DNA of 64,000 bases, taken from NCBI GenBank assembly GCA_963724765.1, contig CAVRVY010000003.1:1-64000 (forward strand). Direction: 5' to 3'. The notes under the pieces were generated by a model. That model did no database searches. It was not told the origin of the DNA and saw only the letters and a program-made list of their open reading frames with translations. This DNA comes from an uncultured delta proteobacterium (GTDB lineage: Bacteria > Desulfobacterota > Binatia > Binatales > Binataceae). Below are positions 3,749-58,994 of this stretch, one piece after another (the stretch's first letter is position 1; each line of letters opens with the position of its first letter). Both the position numbers and the translations under genes were made by a program.

Positions 3749-4843
3749 TGTGCTTAGTCAAAACCTAAACCCTGACATATTGGTGGTGCAGCCCACCCAG
3801 AATTGAAATGGCTGCGATGGGGCCGAGCTTCTGTGGGCGTCGAAAATCCGGCGCATTCTTGTCCAATGAGAGGTGCGTCCGGACCTGGTTGTAATAGGAA
3901 GCGTAATTCTTCAGAACGCGACGCAACTGCGCTTCGTCGAACACGACCAAGTGATCGAGGCTTTCGCGCCGGATCGAGCCGATGAGACGCTCGACGTGGC
4001 CGTTCTGCCACGGTGAGCGCGGCGCAGTCGGGTGATCACGGATCCCCATTGCCCGAATGCGATGGGTGTAGGCTGGGCCGAAGGCCCCGTCGCGGTCGCG
4101 AAGCAGGTGACGCGGCGCTTCGTCCCAGGGAAACGCGTCCGTCACCTGACCTGCGATCCATTCGGCGGTCGGATTGGTAGTGACGCTGATCATGACGAGC
4201 CGCCTGCGGGCGTGACGCAGGATCACCAAGCCGTAGAGCAGCTTGAACGAGACGTGGGTACGACGAACAGATCCAGCGAAGCGATGCCGGCAGCGTGATT
4301 GCGCAGGAAAGGCCTCCAACCTTGGGACGGTGGTCGGCGGCGCCGGACCATATACCTGCCGACGGTTGATTCAGCGACTTCGATGCCAAGCATCAACAAT
4401 TCGCCGTGGATCCGCGGTGCGCCCCACAGCGGGTTCTCGCGGCTCATCCGCCGGATCAGCGCTCGAAGCTCGGTATCGATCCGTGGCCGGCCGCCGACGT
4501 GGCGGGACTTCCAGCGCCAGTAGGCGCGGAAACCACGTTGGTGCCAGCGGAGCACGGTCACCGCCTGGACGATGATGATCGCGTCCAGGAGCGAGGGGTA
4601 CAGTCGATACAGCCATACCAACAGCAGGCGATCGATGTTCCACAGTCTTACGCGCGTCGGGAACTTGCGCCGTCGAACTACCAGTTGTTGGCGCAGGAGG
4701 AGATTCTCGGCCTCAAGCCGCGCGCGCCCCGTGAACCGCGACCGGATAGCAAGCAGCAGCTGGCTCAGAAACGCGACCATCGGCCGCTTCATTACCACAC
4801 GCCTGACCGCGCGTCATCCCGGATAAGGTTTTCGGGAGGCACA
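3749..4843 (-). mobile_element. IS-A copy 1: IS481/IS3-like DDE (rve) insertion sequence with frameshifted transposase
   Basis: Ends TGTGCTTAGTCAAAACCT / (rc) TGTGCCTCCCGAAAACCT; transposase split into 4223-4798 and 3765-4319 (ENPLWGAPRIHGEL, RDRD, PWQNGHVERLIGSIRRE); no target duplication seen. Confidence 0.9.
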
Positions 4844-26952: not shown

Positions 26953-28050
26953 TGTGCTTAGTCAAAACCTAAACCCTTACATATTGGTGGTGCAGCCCAC
27001 CCAGAATTGAGATGGCTGCGATGGGGCCGAGCTTCTGTGGGCGTCGAAAATCCGGCGCATTCTTGTCCAATGAGAGATGCGTTCGGACCCGATTGTAATA
27101 AGAAGCGTAATTCTTCAGAACGCGACGCAACTGCGCTTCGTCGAACACGACCAAGTGATCGAGGCTTTCGCGCCGGATCGAGCCGATGAGGCGCTCGACG
27201 TGGCCGTTCTGCCACGGTGAACGCGGCGCGGTCGGATGATCGCGGATCCCCATTGCCCGAATGCGATGGGTGTAGGCTGGGCCGAAGGCCCCCGTCGCGG
27301 TCGCGAATCAGGTGACGCGGCGCTTCGTCCCAGGGGAAAGCGTCAGTCACCTGTCCAGCGATCCACTCGGCAGTCGGATTGGTAGTGACGCTGATCGCGA
27401 CTAGTCGCCTGCGGGCGTGACGCAGGATCACCAAGCCGTACAGCAGCTTGAACGAGACGTGGGTACGACGAACAGATCCAGCGAAGCGATGCCGCCAACG
27501 TGATTGCGCAGGAAAGTCTTCCAACCTTGGGACAGTGGTCGGCGGCGCCGGACCATATACCTGCCGACGGTTGATTCAGCGACGTCGATGCCAAGCATCA
27601 ACAATTCGCCGTGGATCCGCGGTGCGCCCCACAGCGGGTTCTCGCGGCTCATCCCCGCCGGATCAGCGCTCGCATCTCGCAATCGATCCTTGGACGGCCG
27701 CCGACGTGGCGGGACTTCCAGCGCCAATAGGCGCGGAAACCGCGTCGGTGCCAGCGGATCACGGTCTCCGGCTGGACGATGGTGATCGCGTCCAGGAGCG
27801 ACGGGTACAGTCGGTACAGCCATACCAACAGCAGGCGATCGATGTTCCACAGTCTTACGCGCGTCGGGAACTTGCGCCGTCGAACTACCAGTTGTTGGCG
27901 CAGGAGGAGATTCTCGGCCTCAAGCCGCGCGCGCCGCGTGAACCGCGACCGGATACCACACAACAGCTGGATCAGAAACGCCACCATCGACCGCTTCATT
28001 ACCACACGACCGCCCGACCGTCATCTCGGATAAGGTTTTCGGGACGCACA
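26953..28050 (-). mobile_element. IS-A copy 2 (multiply frameshifted)
   Basis: Both TGT...ACA ends present; transposase spread over four ORF pieces. Confidence 0.9.
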
Positions 28051-30939: not shown

Positions 30940-31696
30940 CGAACAGAAACGAACGAACGCACGAGTCGAGTAGCGTTCCGCAAAGCGCAAAGAGCACCGT
31001 CTAGTAGCCCGCGCTTTCGTCTGCGCAAGGCGGCGCAACGGAGTCAGCGCGAGCGACGAGCGGCGCGGGCTATCAGCGTACACGGACACTGCCTGGTCCC
31101 AACACTCGGTCCCGAACATCGTCAAGGTGCATGACGCTTGGCGGTCTGACCGGTCAGCAGTCGATTCCCATTTCGCTCCCTCCACCCCGAGTCGCTCGCG
31201 GGTCGTCACTCAAAGATAAAAGCGACTAACGTGTGTTCGGCAATGGCTCCGTTTCGGCGATCCTGCAGCCAAGCCGCTCCTGTGCGCAAAGTCGGAGCTG
31301 CAAGACGCCTTGCTGGATGGAGATTCGTGGCGCAAGCTTATCTACGTTGCTTACTGTATGAGAGGGCGCTATGTTCTTCTCCTTATTGCTGCAGAACCAC
31401 GACTGGCTCTGTGACTTTGATTGTCTCGATCAATTTGTATTTCTGCTGGAGAGCTACGTTGTAATCGCGATGCGGATCGCCTTGCCCTCGTCATAACCCT
31501 GTGCCGCGAAATTCCCGCCTGTGCGCGCCTCCCCTTCGCGGCAGCGATTCAATGAATGGGCAGGCCATTTTGCCCCGGTCGCTCCCAGCGACCCTAAAGC
31601 GCCCTAGAAATGCGCTGCGGGGCGATAGCGCTTTGCAGTTCGTCTCGATGTCGCAAACTTAACCTGATGCTGTCGTCTGACTGTTTACAAATCGGT

Positions 31697-32564
31697 TGTG
31701 CCTCCCGAAAACCTTATCCGGGATGACGCGCGGTCAGGCGTGTGGTAATGAAGCGGCCGATGGTGGCGTTTCTGAGCCAGCTGCTGCTTGCTATCAAGTC
31801 GCGGTTCACGCGGCGAGCGCGGCTTGAGGCCGAGAATCTCCTCCTGCGCCAACAACTGGTAGTTCGACGGCGCAAGTTCCCGACGCGCGTGAGACTGTGG
31901 AACATCGATCGCCTGCTGTTGGTATGGCTGTATCGACTGTACCCATCGCTCCTGGACGCCATCATCATCGTCCAGCCGGAGACCGTGCTCCGCTGGCACC
32001 GACGTGGTTTCCGCGCCTACTGGCGCTGGAAGTCCCGCCACGTCGGCGGCCGGCCACGGATCGATACCGAGCTTCGAGCGCTGATCCGGCGGATGAGCCG
32101 CGAGAACCCGCTGTGGGGCGCACCGCGGATCCACGGCGAATTGTTGATGCTTGGCATCGAAGTCGCTGAATCAACCGTCGGCAGGTATATGGTCCGGCGC
32201 CGCCGACCACCGTCCCAAGGTTGGAGGCCTTTCCTGCGCAATCACGCTGCCGGCATCGCTTCGCTGGATCTGTTCGTCGTACGCACCATCTCGTTCAAGC
32301 TGCTCTACGGTTTGGTGATCCTGCGTCACGCCCGCAGGCGGCTCGTAACAATCAGCGTCACTTCCAATCCGACCACCGAATGGATCGCAGGTCAGGTGAC
32401 GGACGCGTTTCCCTGGGACGAAGCGCCGCGTCACCTGATTCGCGACCGCGACGGGGCCTTCGGCCCAGCCTACACCCAGCGCATTCGGGCAATGGGGATC
32501 CGTGATCATCCGACTGCGCCGCGCTCACCGTGGCAGAACGGCCACGTCGAGCGCCTCATCGGCT
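31697..32564 (+). mobile_element. IS-A copy 3, 3'-truncated
   Basis: Left end TGTGCCTCCCGAAAACCT; open frame 31742-32566 ends abruptly at VERLIG. Confidence 0.88.
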
Positions 32565-44442: not shown

Positions 44443-45159
44443 GCGAGGGCAAAAACGCATACCAGCCAAGTCAAGAACGCAACCGTCGCCGTTTCCAGTG
44501 GCACACCTCCACGGCCTGGTCATTCCGGACGAGGGTTTCGGTAGGGCACAGCTATACATCACGCGCGTCGGAAATCGCGGTGCCTGGCCGTTCACGGAAA
44601 GCGCAGCAACCCTTGTCAGGGCCACCGATCTGATATGGAGCGGTCATCTGGAGCTCGGACTTCGCCACGCTCGTGGCTCAAAACTTCAGGCTAGCGCATG
44701 GTCGCGCGGGATTTCATCACGCTACCACGTGAAAAACACCTATGCCTCCCGAAAACCTCATCCTGGATGACGCGCGGGTCAGCGTATGGTAATGAAGCGG
44801 CCGATGGTCGCGTTTCTGACTCAGCTGCTGCTTGCTATCCGGTCGCGGTTCACGCGGCGAGCGCGGCTTGAGGCCGAGAATCTCCTCCTGCGCCAACAAC
44901 TGGTAGTTCTACGGCGCAAGTTCCCGAAGCGCGTGAGACTGTGGAACATCGATCGCTTGCTGTTGGTATGGCTGTATCGACTGTACCCCTCGCTCCTGGA
45001 CGCGATCATCATCGTCCAGCCGGAGACCGTGCTCCGCTGGCACCGACGTGGTTTCCGCGCCTATTGGCGCTGGAAGTCCCGCCACGTCGGCGGCCGTCCA
45101 AGGATCGATTGCGAGATGCGAGCGCTGATCCGGCGGGGATGAGCCGCGAGAACCCGCTG

Positions 45160-45229
45160 TGGGGCGCACCGCCACCACCAGCTCGGTCTTGCTCACATCG
45201 ATCCCAACATAGACATCCTCCTCCATCAC
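45160..45229 (-). pseudogene. IS110 recombinase N-terminal stub
   Basis: MMEEDVYVGIDVSKTELVVAVRP: GIDVSK is the first DEDD RuvC motif; AAGGAG RBS upstream. Confidence 0.85.
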
Positions 45230-45429
45230 CCTGCTCCTTACTCCGCGTCCTACCCGTCCTTGTACATGCGGGCTTCTGCCTTGCGCGCGGCCCTGTCAAC
45301 TGTTCGAGCTGCGGACGCTTGAATTAGCGGACGCGACGATCCTGGCTAAACCACGGTCTCTTGCCGACCCAGGTTTTTACGGTCTGCCGCGCCCGCTGCT
45401 ATCTTCATACGCCGATTCTCAGATACAAG
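45230..45429 (-). ncRNA. IS110 left end encoding an IS621-like bridge RNA
   Basis: Starts CT-TGTAT; 12-bp stem 45326-45337/45386-45397 encloses TAAAAACCT and GGTTTAG; second loop has ACAGTTGAC and GTACAAG; exact RNA ends unknown. Confidence 0.85.
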
Positions 45430-45751
45430 GTTTTGACTAAGCACAGGGGTAAACGCTCCAACCGCGAGGCGGAGCCCGTCGAGATGCATCATCATCTGCC
45501 AGAGAAGTCCGCGGATGAGATCACGCGCGGGTCCTGGTCACACCTAAAGGGGGCCGCTTTGGGCGTCGCGTGCTGGACTGGTCCCGCGTGTTGGTCGGAA
45601 CTTTTTTCCCATGGTCGGAAGTTAAAGAGCGGGGTAGCCTACGACGGCGCTGCCGTGAACACTCCAGGCAAATATTGCATCTTCTGGTTTGCTTTAGTCG
45701 CGCCGAAGGACTAGACCGATTTCAGTCGTCTAATTTGGATGTTGTCTGCCT

Positions 45752-47134
45752 TTGTCGATGGAGGTCGCGGTGACTCCGAGCAAGGCTGGCCAGGCGTTCG
45801 TAGCAAGGGGCGTGAGTGCTATGGGACAGTGCCCAAGGGCGCTCGCACTCCTGGCGGTAGCGGTCGCGCTCGTCGCGGCGACCGTGTCCGTACGCTGGAC
45901 GAAGATCAGCACGTCGTTCCGTTTGCCCTTTCCGCTAGCCATCACCGACCCCTCGATGACCGTGATCAGCGCCATGGTCGAGCGCGGCGATCTATGGGGA
46001 GCCACCGCACGGGTTGGAAGCTCTTATCATTTCGACAAGCCGGCGGGCCTGATGGCATTGCGCTCGTTTTCGGTGCTCGTGCTGCGCCGCGGACTTCAGG
46101 AGTACGACCCATACGAGCGCTGCTATGCGACGAGCGCTTTAGCGTCAGCCGGTGACCGGGACGAGATCGCGCAACTGGTGAAAATCTTCCAGAGCACCCG
46201 AAAGCTCGGCCTGCAGATGGCCGTCGCGGACGGGCTGGGAGACGTTGGCGACGCGGACGCGGTGGAGGCGCTGGGTCGGCTTTACAGCTGGACCGCGCCT
46301 TCATACCGACGAATCGTGGTCAATGGAGCCGCGGAGGCCCACGATCCCGGAGCAGTCGAGCTGCTAAGCCGCGCGCTGACCGTATCCGACCGTGCGACGC
46401 GACTGACCGCGGCGAAGGGACTCGGCGAGGTCGGGAACCGCAGCGCCATCCCGGTCCTGAGGCGGTTCCTGGCTACCGCGCAGGACCCTTTCGAAAAGGC
46501 GACGGCCGCTTATTCGCTATTGCGCTTGGGCGACCGCTCCGCGGAGGAGATCGCCGAGCCGATTTTGCGTGGCCATGTCGATGATAATGCCCGGGCGATG
46601 GCGGCGGTGGCGCTCGGTCGTGCGCGCGACCCGCGAGTAGTCGGCCTGCTGAGGGAGGCGATAAGAGATCGCAATATCGACGTGCGAATCGGCGCGGCAG
46701 TGGCGCTTACGCACTATGACGATCCCGCCGGCCCCGAGTACCTGGAGGCGGCCATGCAGGACGAGGACTCGATGACGCGGCTACATGTCGGTCAACTCCT
46801 GGACGAGGTGGAGTTTCAAAACGCGCGCGAGGTTCTGATGGCGGCGGTCGCTTCGCCGGACCCCGAATTGTCAATGCTGGGGATTCGGGCGATCGGCTTG
46901 TCAGGCGGCGCCGGCGAAGTCGGCCTTCTCGTCAGGCTGGCGGACAAAGCCGGGGACCCGATCACTCGCGCCGAGGTGGCGTGGGCGTTGGGCAGAATTG
47001 GCAGTCGTGGCTCTGTCGCGCCACTGATCGCGATGGTCTCGGAGCTTGACCATACCGTGCGTTACACAGCCGCCGACGCGCTCGACCGCACGGCGATGCG
47101 GCTTTTGCAAAGCGAATCGGCCGGCGGCGCGTGA
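45752..47134 (+). CDS. Membrane-anchored or secreted HEAT-repeat protein
   Basis: N-terminal hydrophobic segment; repeated R..AA.ALG motifs; start uncertain. Confidence 0.8.
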   Translation: MSMEVAVTPSKAGQAFVARGVSAMGQCPRALALLAVAVALVAATVSVRWTKISTSFRLPFPLAITDPSMTVISAMVERGDLWGATARVGSSYHFDKPAGLMALRSFSVLVLRRGLQEYDPYERCYATSALASAGDRDEIAQLVKIFQSTRKLGLQMAVADGLGDVGDADAVEALGRLYSWTAPSYRRIVVNGAAEAHDPGAVELLSRALTVSDRATRLTAAKGLGEVGNRSAIPVLRRFLATAQDPFEKATAAYSLLRLGDRSAEEIAEPILRGHVDDNARAMAAVALGRARDPRVVGLLREAIRDRNIDVRIGAAVALTHYDDPAGPEYLEAAMQDEDSMTRLHVGQLLDEVEFQNAREVLMAAVASPDPELSMLGIRAIGLSGGAGEVGLLVRLADKAGDPITRAEVAWALGRIGSRGSVAPLIAMVSELDHTVRYTAADALDRTAMRLLQSESAGGA

Positions 47135-48839: not shown

Positions 48840-50134
48840 TGTCCCTGCTGAAAATTCTCACCCGACAAAAATCGGAGCAGGTGGCAGAGGCCAAGGACGA
48901 CCAGCTGCGATGAACCGGCGCGCGGCGCAGCCTGTACTATAAGCGGCTATCGCGCCAGATCTAAACTTTATCAATACGAGGATTCCGCAGACCGTGGTGC
49001 CGGCCGCGGCGCAACCAATGGCGGGCAGTAGTTGGTGCCGTCAGGCCGCGAGGCGCTGGTAACGATGGTGCAACCCGCCGACTTCCGGGGTGGCGATGAC
49101 TCGGCCGCTCTGCGGTGATTGTACGCAGCGCGAGTGCGGACAATCCTTGTCGAGTGAGAGATGCGTTCGGGTCAGGTGATAGTAGCCCACGTATGATGAA
49201 AGGAGGCGGCGCAAATGGCGTTCGTTAAGGATGATGACGTGGTCCAGGCACTCCGCCGGATCGAGCCGATCACGCGCTCGACGTAAGCGTTCTGCCACGG
49301 TGAGCGTGGTGCCGTGACGACCTCAGCGATTCCCATCGCGGCGACTCGCTTGCTGAAGACCGAGCCGTAGGAGGTGTCGCGGTCGCGCAGCAGAAAGCTG
49401 GGAGCCGTGCCCCACGGAAACGCTTCTATTACCTGCTGCGAAAGCCACGCCGCCGTGGGATGCTGCGTAACATCGAACTGCACAATCTTTCTGCGACCGT
49501 GAGCCAGGATGATCATCACGTAGAGCAGTCGAAACGAGACCGACACGACGACGAACATGTCGATGGCGGCGATGCCGATTACTTCGTTGCGCAGGAAGCT
49601 ACGCCATGTCGGTGAAGACGTTCCGATTCGTCGCACCATGTACTTTGCGACCGTGGCTTGGCTGACCTCGATACCGAGCTTCAAGAGCTCGCCGTGGATG
49701 CGGGGCGCACCCCACAGCGGGTTGGCGCTGTTCATCTGCCGGATCAGATCACGAACTTCGCGATCTACTGAGGGCCTTCCAGACCTTGAGCGCCAACGCC
49801 AATAGAGCCGGAAGCCTTGTCGATGCCACTGGACTACGGTGGCTGGCTTTACCAACACCATGAGGTTCAAGCACCGTGGCCAGACCCGGTAAAGCCAGAC
49901 CCGGAGTAAGCGATCGAGCGTGGAGAGCCGGACGCGGCCAGGACGCTGGCGACGCAGCACTGTCAGCTGGTGGCGGAGCGCAATGACCTCGAGCTCCAAT
50001 TTCGCGCGGCTGCGAAACCGACCGACGAGCCATGAAAGAAGCGCCAAGATAAATGCGAGCATGCCCGTGACGCTACGGCCGAGCTAGATAAATCGCTAGA
50101 CTTTTCGAGGCTTTCCGAGTTTTCAATAGGGACA
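48840..50134 (-). mobile_element. IS-B: second IS481/IS3-like DDE element, full length, frameshift near 3' end
   Basis: IRs TGTCCCTGCTGAAAATTC / TGTCCCTATTGAAAACTC; transposase 49172-50062 plus 49041-49298. Confidence 0.9.
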
Positions 50135-50418
50135 GGGGCCGCTTGCATGAGCAACCGCGGCTTCGTGCTGGGTCTCGTCCCGCTGGATTCGCGCTGAGTC
50201 TAATTCGGCCCGCCCCTACTCGCGACGGCGCGCCGAAACGGCGTTGCGTTCCGGCCATGCTACGGGCGCTTTCGCAGCACGCGCGCGCCACCGTCGAGAT
50301 GCTCGCGGCCGGCAGCGAGATCCGCCCGTCGTGATGACGCCGTTGAATGCGATATGGAGATAGAATCGGGTCTTAAAGCTAAGAGCCGTGCCGGCTCCCT
50401 CTCGGAGGTAACGGAAAC

Positions 50419-50730
50419 ATGCGGCGTGTTTATCCTAGCGAAGTTGTTCGATTCGTCGCGCAGTATTTCCCCGAAGCGGCGGAGGAGATTGAACCAACAA
50501 CCGTCAAGCATTTCGCTTTGCCATGGAGGAAAAAGGGATTCGTACGCGCACTCGTCGAACTGACCGAGGCGCTACCCCAGGACCTGATAAATTTGCAAGC
50601 CGATTCGTATTGCGCATTGCTCTCTGGCGTCGCTGCCCTTCACACTGCCCTTGAAGGATGGTCGCATCCGGAAGAACACGCGATTCAGTGGCTCGATGGA
50701 ATCGGCAACCCTCTGACCATTATTTGGCGC
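50419..50730 (+). pseudogene. Hypothetical protein truncated by IS debris
   Basis: ORF with GGAGG RBS runs into IS-A sequence at ~50737. Confidence 0.45.
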
Positions 50731-50736
50731 GAGTCG

Positions 50737-50994
50737 ATGCCAGCGGAGCACGGTCTCCGGCTGGACGATGATGATCGCGCCCAGGAGCGACGGGTACAGT
50801 CGATACAGCCATACCCACCGCAAGCGATCGATGTTCCACAGTCTCACTCGCGTTGGAGACTTGCGTCGTAGAACCGCGAGCTGTTGGCGCGGGAGGAGAT
50901 TTTCGGCCTCAAGCCGCGCTCGCCGCGTAAATCGCGACCGGATAGCAAGCAGCTCCATCATCAATACGCCCGAGTTTAGGTTTTCAATAGCACA
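50737..50994. mobile_element. IS-A debris: minus-strand 5' fragment fused to a plus-strand 3' end of a related IS
   Basis: RARLEAENLL..PETVLRWH on minus; LHHQYARV* then GTTTTCAATAGCACA on plus (50953-50994). Confidence 0.75.
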
Positions 50995-57071: not shown

Positions 57072-58167
57072 TGTGCTTAGTCAAAACCTAAACTCTGACA
57101 TATTGGTGATGCAGCCCGCCCAGCATTGAGATGACTGCTATGGGACCGAGCTTCTGCGGGCGACGAAAAGTCGGCGCATTCTTGTGCAATGAGAGATGCG
57201 TCCGGACTTCGTTATAATAGGAAGCGTAATTCTTTAGAACGCGACGCAAGTGCGCTTCGTCGAACACCACCAGGTGGTCGAGACATTCGCGCCGGATAGA
57301 GCCGATGAGGCGCTCGACGTGGCCGTTCTGCCACGGTGAGCGCGGTGCAGTCGGATGGTCGCGGATCCGCATTGCCCGAATGCGATGGGTGTAGGCTGGG
57401 CCGAAGGCCCCGTCGCGGTCGCGAATCAGGTGACTGGGCGCTTCATCCCAGGGGAACGCGTCCGTCACCTGACCAGCGATCCACTCGGCGGTCGGATTGG
57501 AAGTGACGCTGATTGTGACTAGCCGCCGGCGGGCGTGACGCAGGATAACCAAGCCATAGAGCAGCTTGAACGAGATGGTGCGCACCACGAACAGATCCAG
57601 CGAAGCGATGCCGGCCGCGTGATTACGCAGGAAAGTCTTCCAACCTTGGGACGGTGGTCGGCGGCGCCGGACCATATACCTGCCGACGGTTGACTCAGCA
57701 ACTTCGATGCCAAGCATCAACAACTCGCCGTGGATCCGCGGTGCGCCCCACAGTGGGTTCTCGCCGCTCATCCGCCGGATCAGCGCTCGAATATCTGAAT
57801 TGATCCGTGGACGGCCGCCGACGTGGCGGGACTTCCAGCGCCAGTATGCGCGGAAACCGCGTCGGTGCCAGCGGAGAATCGTCTCCGGCTGGACGATGAT
57901 AATCGCGTCCAGGAGTGACGGGTAAAGTCGATACAGCCATACGAACAGCAAGCGATCGACGTTCCACAGTCTCACGCGCGTCGGAGACTTGCGCCGTAGA
58001 ATTACAAGCTGTTGGCGCAGGAAGAGATTCTCGGCCTCTAGCCGCGCTCGACTCGTGAACCGCGACCGGATGGCAAGCAGTAGCTGGGTCAGAAACGCGA
58101 CCATCGGCCGCTTCACAAGCATACGCCCATGTGCGCATCATCCCGGATAAGGTTTTCGGAAGGCACA
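57072..58167 (-). mobile_element. IS-A copy 5 with intact 344-aa transposase (57088-58122)
   Basis: Both ends present, uninterrupted ORF; abuts and truncates an IS-B copy. Confidence 0.93.
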
Positions 58168-58994
58168 GGTGCCGTGACGACCTCAGCGATTCCCATCGCG
58201 GCGACTCGCTTGCTGAAGACCGAGCCGTAGGAGGTGTCGCGGTCGCGCAGCAGAAAGCTGGGAGCCGTGTCCCACGGAAACGCTTCTATTACCTGCTGCG
58301 AAAGCCACGCCGCCGTGGGATGCTGCGTAACATCGAACTGCACAATCTTTCTGCGACCGTGAGCCAGGATGATCATCACGTAGAGCAGTCGAAACGAGAC
58401 CGACACGACGACGAACATGTCGATGGCGGCGATGCCGATTACTTCGTTGCGCAGGAAGCTACGCCATGTCGGTGAAGACGTTCCGATTCGTCGCACCATG
58501 TACTTTGCGACCGTGGCTTGGCTGACCTCGATACCGAGCTTCAAGAGCTCGCCGTGGATGCGGGGCGCACCCCACAGCGGGTTGGCGCTGTTCATCTGCC
58601 GGATCAGATCACGAACTTCGCGATCTACTGAGGGCCTTCCAGACCTTGAGCGCCAACGCCAATAGAGCCGGAAGCCTTGTCGATGCCACTGGACTACGGT
58701 GGCTGGCTTTACCAACACCATGAGGTTCAAGCACCGTGGCCAGACCCGGTAAAGCCAGACCCGGAGTAAGCGATCGAGCGTGGAGAGCCGGACGCGGCCA
58801 GGACGCTGGCGACGCAGCACTGTCAGCTGGTGGCGGAGCGCAATGACCTCGAGCTCCAATTTCGCGCGGCTGCGAAACCGACCGACAAGCCATGAAAGAA
58901 GCGCCAAGATAAATGCGAGCATGCCCGTGACGTTACGGCCGAGCTAGATAAATCGCTAGACTTTTTGAGGCTTTCCGAGTTTTCAATAGGGACA
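58168..58994 (-). mobile_element. IS-B copy, 3'-truncated by IS-A copy 5
   Basis: Near-identical to 49308-50134; end TGTCCCTATTGAAAACTC at 58994. Confidence 0.9.

Follow-up and report, generated by a model that had tools for sequence, protein, structure and literature searches.

Insertion sequences (ISs) of the IS110 group have a non-coding left end exceeding the right end in length (PMC11208160, in part). The closest described system to the locus reported here is IS621, for which portions of PMC11208160 and PMC11208158 set out a bridge RNA with left guides in the sense of the top strand, right guides complementary to it and the core included in both, while the donor loop is built alike and the first handshake position is complementary. 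The same partial account has IS621 targeting repetitive extragenic palindromic (REP) elements, with a right target guide that pairs over 4 base pairs (bp) in all and for which an extension to 7 bp was tested. Insertion into the ends of other mobile elements is also on record: going by titles cited in PMC11208160, IS1383 inserts into the inverted repeats of IS1384 in Pseudomonas putida H (2001), and IS4321 and IS5075 insert into the terminal repeats of Tn21-family transposons (2003). Further, portions of PMC11187229 describe close relatives (ISEc11 and ISXne4, ISEc21 and ISMch6) that keep the RNA scaffold and differ in target segments and flanks. Here, we present an analysis of a locus in a 64,000-nucleotide stretch of DNA from an uncultured member of the Binataceae (the window; contig C3:1-64000 of genome G000), where part of a 1255-bp IS110-family element, called IS-B, adjoins the right end of another IS, called IS-A. 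We consider it highly probable that IS-B is an IS110-group IS with a left-end bridge RNA programmed for the IS-A right-end sequence TCAAAAC-CT-AAACC.

IS-B and IS621 are alike in the DEDD plus Tnp recombinase family, in the placement of the RNA in the longer left end, in the CT core on both sides, in two internal-loop modules ordered left guide, hairpin, right guide, and in the guide senses and the first handshake. Unlike IS621, IS-B has as its target the terminal repeat of another IS and not a REP element, and its right target guide pairs with 5 nucleotides (nt) beyond the core, against the 4 bp in all of the partial IS621 account. The two outermost left-target positions also look weakly specified or unspecified, and no junction promoter was detected. 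As far as the title of that study tells, IS1383 resembles IS-B in being an IS110-family element with a different IS's inverted repeat as its target, in another host and with another partner IS and other sequences. IS4321 and IS5075 share with IS-B, again by title, an insertion that is specific in site and orientation and falls within another element's terminal repeat, but they belong to the IS1111 group, carry inverted repeats in a subterminal position and have a Tn3-family end as their target instead of an IS481-like IS. The IS1111-group trait of a guide RNA in a long right end, with subterminal repeats of 7-17 bp, does not describe IS-B, whose RNA lies in the left end and whose right end is shorter than the left (subterminal repeats were not searched separately). 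IS1383 itself is an IS1111-group element with the RNA in its right end, and to our knowledge the earlier cases of IS-into-IS homing are IS1111-group elements. The retargeting pattern of ISEc11/ISXne4 and ISEc21/ISMch6 recurs between the IS-B clade and the loci L005, L049-L054, L061-L067 and L066, the evidence being comparative here and, in the published portions mentioned above, experimental there.

Targeting of the terminal repeat of another mobile element by the IS110 family is already known, and the IS-A/IS-B pair is a further case. Our literature searches returned no description of this pairing or of IS elements of this bacterial family, although ISfinder or the supplements of papers may list them. 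The IS-B clade is a natural example in which the two half-sites of the target, the two half-sites of the donor and the first handshakes are legible, and comparisons can draw on numerous independent junctions and on several sister lineages that were retargeted. With it, IS-into-IS homing comes to include an IS110-group element whose RNA lies in the left end, in an uncultured lineage; the known picture of how IS110 elements work is unchanged, and the mechanism is ordinary. For engineering, natural variants with a right guide apparently reading 5 nt past the core and with the outer two left positions apparently unread can inform guide length.

IS-B, its predicted left-end RNA and the guides

Read on the minus strand, the window passes from TGTGCTTAGTCAAAAC (45445..45430), the outer 16 bp of the IS-A right terminal inverted repeat as seen at the ends of empty IS-A copies, through CT (45429..45428) to the IS-B start TGTATCTGAG from 45427. 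By direct reading, the last 7 nt of the 16 bp are the left target TCAAAAC (45436..45430), and the CT is the core at the left junction, present on both ends of full copies. The following 198 nt have no long open reading frame (ORF). They form the IS-B left end (45230..45427), which is assigned as non-coding and bridge RNA-encoding from BLAST, a covariance model and the fold, and a GTG at 45229 then starts a GIDVSK frame beginning MMEEDVYVGIDVSK. Altogether, positions 45160-45427 of the minus strand are the first 268 nt of IS-B.

The full IS-B copy of this genome resides on contig C4 (1579273-1580527, minus strand; 1255 bp including one CT, i.e. 1253 bp plus the CT core) and is 100% identical to the window over these 268 nt in an own-genome BLAST search. 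Its 198-nt left end lies upstream of the recombinase gene, and its right end measures 97 nt. The 319-residue protein matches PF01548 (E 1.7e-21) and PF02371 (E 4.6e-17), as well as the NCBIfam model NF033542, 'IS110 family RNA-guided transposase', with 213.9 bits against a cut-off of 140. At the right end, ...ACACGGTTG-CT leads into AAACCCTTACATATTGG, the sequence that also comes after TGTGCTTAGTCAAAAC-CT in empty IS-A copies, and excising IS-B together with one CT restores a continuous IS-A end exactly and without a scar. The relatives L002 and L003 from two other genomes, with transposases 92-93% identical to that of IS-B, likewise split an IS-A-type right end at CT; AAACCC comes next at their right junctions, with the C-terminal codons of an IS-A-type transposase on the other strand.

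A sequence-only reading of the window had proposed a bridge RNA of the IS621 layout, and all stems, motifs and junction positions that it named were found in place on the minus strand, to which the following coordinates refer. The target-binding module (45326..45397) is supported by covariation, its guides varying among relatives while the stems are kept. It consists of a basal stem of 12 bp (10 Watson-Crick and 2 G-U pairs; 45397..45386 with 45337..45326), the left target guide UAAAAACCU (DNA TAAAAACCT; 45379..45371), a distal hairpin (45369..45355) closed by GGTC/GACC (45369..45366 with 45358..45355), and the right target guide GGUUUAG (DNA GGTTTAG; 45352..45346). The donor-binding module (45245..45318) comprises helices 3 to 5 of the 30-pair structure described below, and the element's own ends match its guides. 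Its outer stem GCGUCC/GGACGC (45318..45313 with 45250..45245) and inner stem (45308..45305 with 45256..45253) enclose ACAGTTGAC (45303..45295) with the left donor guide ACAGUUG (45303..45297), a distal hairpin (45293..45270) and the right donor guide GUACAAG (DNA GTACAAG; 45265..45259).

When the guides of the target loop (UAAAAAC-CU and GGUUU-AG) are read against the empty IS-A end TCAAAAC-CT-AAACC, 13 of the 14 positions agree and position 2 does not, as the sequence-only reading had found. For the donor, that reading had predicted a right end ACAGTTG-CT. The prediction is borne out exactly at L002, L003 and L004, where the guide ACAGUUG agrees at 7/7 positions, and falls one base short in the C4 copy, which has ACGGTTG-CT (6/7). 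On the other side, GUACAAG forms six Watson-Crick pairs and one G-T with CT-TGTAT at the start of the IS-B left end, while the core-facing bases AC of the left donor guide mismatch CT. At the first handshake positions, C stands just 3' of the right target guide in 32/32 left ends, opposite G at donor position 7 in those right ends that were read, and G stands just 3' of the right donor guide in 32/32, opposite C at target position 7 in 38/39 sites. In the genome of 5.4 megabases (Mb), the 14-mer TCAAAAC-CT-AAACC occurs seven times, each time at an empty IS-A right end, and the same holds for its inner 12-mer. The match to the target goes beyond chance because the comparative evidence is strong and because all seven genomic 14-mers are IS-A ends.

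Folded as a single sequence, the left end forms two stem-loop domains that are modestly better than shuffled sequences (z -1.79). The comparative evidence for the structure comes from related left ends gathered from the genomes of relatives, 99% down to about 65% identical and aligned in sets of 16 and then 32 distinct ends. In these alignments the stems are conserved and two short segments of the first domain vary freely, and the RNAalifold consensus has compensatory changes in 9 of 29 pairs. A test structure of 30 pairs was written by hand from this consensus and the outer stem of the second domain; its helices 1 and 2, which belong to the target module, are 97% paired, with compensatory changes among the pairs. 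Over the 32 left ends, 91.4% of its cells are paired, compared with 85.3 +/- 0.6 in shuffled alignments and 36-45% with the partners slid, and 13 pairs are changed on both sides compared with 7.5 +/- 1.5 (0/500 shuffles reach either value); related sequences can beat shuffles without any structure, a weakness of which the slid controls are free. Additionally, a covariance model, R1, was built from 23 relatives with zero members of the IS-B clade. It matches 45243-45405 of the minus strand over all 160 positions with 112.5 bits (E 2.2e-28), and the next matches in the window have E 0.57. Covariation and covariance model thus both uphold the proposed layout, the latter through the very kind of model search that the sequence-only reading had suggested as a check.

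Target sites and guides across the family

For the target specificity of the IS-B clade, collections of species genomes and metagenomes were scanned with a 17-nt stretch covering the right target guide, giving 11 and 53 matches, respectively. Those without the IS-B left-end motif upstream were discarded as chance matches in unrelated DNA. After identical flanks had been merged and loci fetched earlier had been added, 24 distinct left junctions were available, 23 of them in the IS-B clade. Sixteen of the 23 clade junctions read TCAAAAC-CT and three CCAAAAC-CT, so that 19 have (T/C)CAAAAC-CT, and the four variants are TCAAACC, TGAAACC, AAAAACC and CTCAAAC. TGT stands 18 nt before the insertion point in 17/23 junctions and one nt further out in two, and is absent from four; the exact 16-mer of the own genome's IS-A end is present in 8/23. 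The right flank is known for nine clade junctions and is AAACC in eight and AATCC in one (L004). Full-length homologues therefore occupy the same type of site, as had been anticipated for a homing element: the C4 copy, L002 and L003 split IS-A-type right ends at CT, and 19/23 junctions carry the (T/C)CAAAAC-CT half-site.

For the two AATCC sites, L004 and L038, membership of the right flanks (AATCC...) in an IS could not be demonstrated from the flanking DNA. Near L004 there is the N-terminal half, and no more, of an IS-A-like gene, and at L038 an apparent helix-turn-helix fragment of another transposase comes next. A sister element, L066 (G126:C68), has a right target guide for AATCC in place of AAACC and the left flank TGTGGTTCCTCACAAAC-CT. 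Its contig ends before the right junction; L004 and L038 are the sites with AATCC as right flank. These features hint that the L066 guide may have been retargeted to a variant end.

Across the wider family, loops were taken from the alignment of 32 left ends and flanks from the stored loci, which gave 39 site rows (one listed twice) and 12 right-guide classes; the relatives in these statistics are related and do not represent independent samples. Two genomes marked as unpublished, G033 and G077, carry none of the claims made here. In 20 of the 24 sites with a called right end, the five core-adjacent nt of the right guide match the right flank at 5/5 positions. The match is 4/5 in three sites (L004, L052, L065) and 1/5 in L016, where the script took the last candidate right end; with the candidate at element length 1250, L016 scores 5/5. 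Of the 498 non-cognate right-guide pairings, by comparison, six reach 5/5 and 13 reach 4/5. The left guide matches the 7-nt left target at a mean of 4.95/7 positions in cognate pairs, compared with 2.99/7 in 1338 non-cognate pairs. Shuffling the flanks among the 27 unique guide sets gives a sum of 86.6 +/- 5.3 against the observed 125, a value reached in 0/20000 shuffles. As the length of the 5' loop of the left guide differs between relatives (9 to 12 nt), the best of three registers was scored for cognate and non-cognate pairs alike, and the per-position table of the left guide is blurred because of this choice; in it, the two outermost left-target positions match least (13/30 each, with ambiguous register). 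A one-nucleotide bulge in the target was considered as the cause of imperfect left matches and dropped, since the bulge position was inconsistent.

The half-sites of the retargeted lineages differ widely and include AAACC, CTCCC, CCCCC, GCTAG, GAGCG, CACCT, GCACC and TCGAC. That flanks starting with TGTCC are IS ends in all relatives was also considered and rejected, the flanks of L052, L065 and L016 forming REP-like palindromes instead. Because these three sit in REP-like palindromes, the claim of homing to IS ends is limited to the IS-B clade.

Weighing the explanations

If IS-B works in the manner of IS621, its left end would encode a bridge RNA of about 160-200 nt. By the same analogy, the DEDD/Ser recombinase would bind this RNA, the donor loop would pair with the circle-joined ends of IS-B itself, ACAGTTG-CT-TGTAT, and strand exchange at the CT core would place IS-B into the IS-A end in one orientation. 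At the window locus, one IS-A copy would have been invaded, and a later deletion of 1.6 kb between 13-nt repeats would have left an orphan bridge-RNA gene.

Several observations weigh against this explanation. The C at left-target position 2 is never matched, the guide having A or U in all copies, and over the family the left guide agrees with its target unevenly and imperfectly, at 2 to 7 of 7 positions. The 24th junction, L091, belongs to a distant IS110 element on a metagenome contig, with a left end 64% identical and the same 17-nt stretch; by our right-end call it is flanked by GAGCC and not by AAACC, contrary to its guide, which points to an off-target copy or else to a mistaken call of the end. 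Regarding expression, a scan of 45100-45600 for consensus promoters and terminators found nothing, and neither the integrated copy nor the in-silico circle junction of the clade showed a sigma-70-like promoter, although the consensus may not be that of the host phylum; a TTGACT-17-TATxxx pair spans the in-silico circle junction in two of ten elements scanned (L016 and L019). In two RNA-library runs, contigs fell on parts of the transposase gene of relatives (90-97% likeness) and none on the left end. Among the contigs of four public runs, no joint of right and left end, as expected of a circle, was reported, which is uninformative on excision; the DNA contigs contained IS-A ends without an insertion as well as the flank of the window itself, and the contigs of the four runs carry no weight for or against expression or excision.

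The state of IS-B in this genome adds to these points. In an alignment of 25 relatives' proteins that includes the C4 copy, the C4 transposase has the motifs GID, VEATGG, KTD and DDSG, but it alone reads KTDRIE where the other 24 of 25 read KTDxxD (by the residues named in PMC11208158 and by motif reading, the fourth DEDD residue), and soon after DDSG it has D (RRDRR) where the other 24 have G. In addition, its right end ACGGTTG-CT is one base off its own donor guide. The full C4 copy is probably crippled and may be inactive because of the E at the fourth DEDD position, the G-to-D change and the donor-base mismatch. The seven perfect 14-mer targets in the genome stay empty, and the IS-B family looks extinct or nearly so in this genome, though active in the lineage. 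The sequence-only reading had described an RNA-guided recombinase that specifically parasitises IS-A. This interpretation is supported in substance, and each of the three checks that could have refuted it (sites of full-length homologues, fit to the fold, sequence of the right end) came out in its favour. It needs correcting in that the window copy is a deleted remnant caught at its left junction, that the full C4 copy is probably crippled and that an IS110-family element aimed at the ends of another IS has precedents.

Other accounts of the locus have to be compared with guided insertion. The 18 bp TGTGCTTAGTCAAAAC-CT could be IS-B's own terminus, or IS-A and IS-B could form one composite, with nothing being targeted. 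All four IS-B left junctions in the genome do share the same 18 bp; against this stand the IS-B-free IS-A copies that end in the 16-mer and continue CT-AAACCC, just as the sequence does after the IS-B right end in the C4 copy, L002 and L003, and the quite different left flanks of relatives with other guides. The differences between the window and C4 copies, 0/268 nt in IS-B and 4/197 in the adjoining IS-A parts, also speak against a shared terminus or composite, and they are a weak hint that the two arose by separate insertions into two IS-A copies and not by copying of a composite. An own terminus or a composite is in our judgement extremely improbable. It is also conceivable that the transposase protein or the structure of the IS-A end chooses the site, the stem-loops being a leader or terminal structure and the 13/14 match incidental. 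The unexceptional single-sequence fold (z -1.79) would suit such a choice, as would the poorly matched upstream left-target positions of many relatives and the structural layer of target recognition reported in the abstract of a preprint on ISPpu10, another IS110 element. We regard it as very unlikely nonetheless, since guides co-vary with flanks over 12 right-guide classes on a conserved scaffold and the protein family is one with experimentally shown RNA guidance.

A further possibility is that the IS-B copies of this genome were carried passively inside transposing IS-A copies and do not reflect repeated RNA-guided insertions. IS-B lies internal to the outermost 18 bp of the IS-A repeat, and these 18 bp retain TGTGC and AAAACCT, the blocks common to both IS-A ends; because both shared blocks are kept, the IS-A transposase might still use an end split by IS-B. 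The contrast of 4/197 with 0/268 differences counts against passive carriage as well, and the clade is found in at least 23 different contexts in genomes and metagenomes, at IS-A-type ends of differing sequence. Moreover, every IS-A::IS-B composite in the genome is rearranged, and because of this none has two usable IS-A ends. Passive carriage is thus improbable, less so than the two preceding accounts.

Guided insertion of IS-B into IS-A ends can be taken one step further, to a picture that we regard as possible rather than probable when all its parts are taken together. In the soil- and wetland-dwelling Binataceae, the whole bridge-RNA clade would be a specialist hyperparasite of one IS481-like family. 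Its homing site of 12-14 nt may be hard for the host IS to change because it is part of the terminal repeat as well as of the last transposase codons and the stop. Sister lineages may have retuned their guides to variant ends, an example being L066 with AATCC, the right flank at two sites occupied by the clade. With IS-B inside of two conserved blocks and the stop regenerated, IS-A might be left mobile with IS-B riding along, and guide RNA might still be provided in trans by orphan remnants such as the window copy.

The window remnant, IS-A and related elements

The sequence-only reading had presented the window as an IS110 element caught at its target. The left junction with the IS-A end holds, while the element itself is a deleted remnant without a right junction in the window. 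It retains the left junction, the whole non-coding left end and the first 23 codons of the DEDD transposase, including GIDVSK (45160..45229, minus strand; by BLAST, and by tblastn for residues 1-24). The recombinase and the right junction are missing because the IS-B copy ends after 268 nt. In the own-genome BLAST search, identity to IS-B stops at 45160 and identity to the IS-A interior runs from 45172 to 44740, so that the two overlap by 13 nt (45160..45172, minus strand) at a short direct repeat. On contig C4, the transposase genes of IS-B and of IS-A each contain the 13-nt repeat once. In the simplest reading, the window copy would be a deletion remnant from which about 1.6 kb was lost between the 13-nt direct repeats by microhomology; the rest of IS-B, with the transposase gene and the right end, and the right part of IS-A have been removed from the locus. 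The host copy keeps its left 432 bp (44741..45172, plus strand), from the left inverted repeat to the N-terminal 118 transposase codons (ORF 44786..45142). What is left at the original left junction is an orphan but intact predicted bridge-RNA gene.

IS-A is about 1090 bp long, with imperfect inverted repeats TGTGCTTAGTCAAAACC and TGTGCCTCCCGAAAACC at its ends. Its boundary is fixed because the DNA beyond TGTGC of the IS-A end differs in every copy. BLAST in the genome finds nine near-full-length matches, seven of them at >=90% identity, plus many fragments, and the 344-residue frame is intact in 5/9 copies examined. The protein contains an rve_3 integrase core above the cut-off. Among NCBIfam models it is closest to transpos_IS481, whose cut-off of 224 it does not reach with 96.4 bits, and then to IS3 (84.3 bits), and we treat IS-A as a putative IS481-like element on this basis. 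Both empty ends named by the sequence-only reading were located as it had placed them: the reference copy (3749..4838, minus strand) has its right end at 3749 and the 14-mer target at 3758-3771, the second copy (26953..28050, minus strand) has the target at 26962-26975, and the empty-end motif TCAAAACCTAAACC starts at 3758 and 26962. The 14-mer lies 10-23 nt inside the IS-A right terminal inverted repeat, and the insertion point of IS-B is the CT core 18 bp inside this repeat. The stop codon of the IS-A transposase (3765-3767, minus strand) overlaps the CT core; by our reading of the sequence it would be regenerated upon insertion because CT is present on both sides of the inserted IS-B. The overlap suggests why the site is a stable and safe landing place. 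The window, i.e. the first 64 kb of the contig, is rich in ISs, with IS-A at 3749-4838, 26953-28050, 31694-32564 and 57072-58168 and fragments at 49143-50953.

Two further partial IS-B copies of this genome, 91% identical, lie head to head at C3:216716-217628 and 218167-217611 (locus L012, G000:C3:216698-218185) and reach element positions 916 and 554. The IS-A 16-mer and CT precede each copy, and two IS-A right ends in inverted orientation delimit the block. Where the copies meet, the sequence is GC-rich and partly palindromic, and a real inverted duplication and an assembly artefact are both possible. In another genome, L038 (G011:C134, around 1443-1600) is a 158-bp derivative of IS-B with an internal deletion, flanked by TGTCCCTGGTCAAACAC-CT and AATCC. 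Retained are the left end, including the left target guide, as well as the donor loop and the right end, whereas the right target guide and the transposase are missing; L038 looks like a miniature non-autonomous IS-B copy. The long hairpin of the IS-B right end (around 1166-1241) also occurs alone, in several copies of 89-91% identity in G017, G019 and G020, other genomes of the family, away from IS-B matches. It may represent a small palindromic repeat in its own right or belong to the tail of other IS110 elements.

An Rfam scan of 44800-45800 at a permissive threshold yielded no family that reached its own threshold. The best match was sX15, a Xanthomonas small RNA (sRNA) family, at 45328-45395 on the plus strand, antisense to the target-binding module (22 bits, E 0.33, gathering score 55), and was taken as chance or as an antisense echo of the hairpin; whether the sX15 family derives from an IS110 left end is raised here as a question only. 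Across the whole genome, the covariance model R1 matches the four IS-B copies and three weaker places (G000:C4:1704565-1704670, C1:1241614-1241706 and C2:510867-510975). The matches on C4 and C1 are left-end fragments of another lineage with the right guide GCTAG, and the former runs into an apparent IS-A-type end. The match on C2 precedes a distinct IS110-family gene whose product is 32% identical to that of IS-B.

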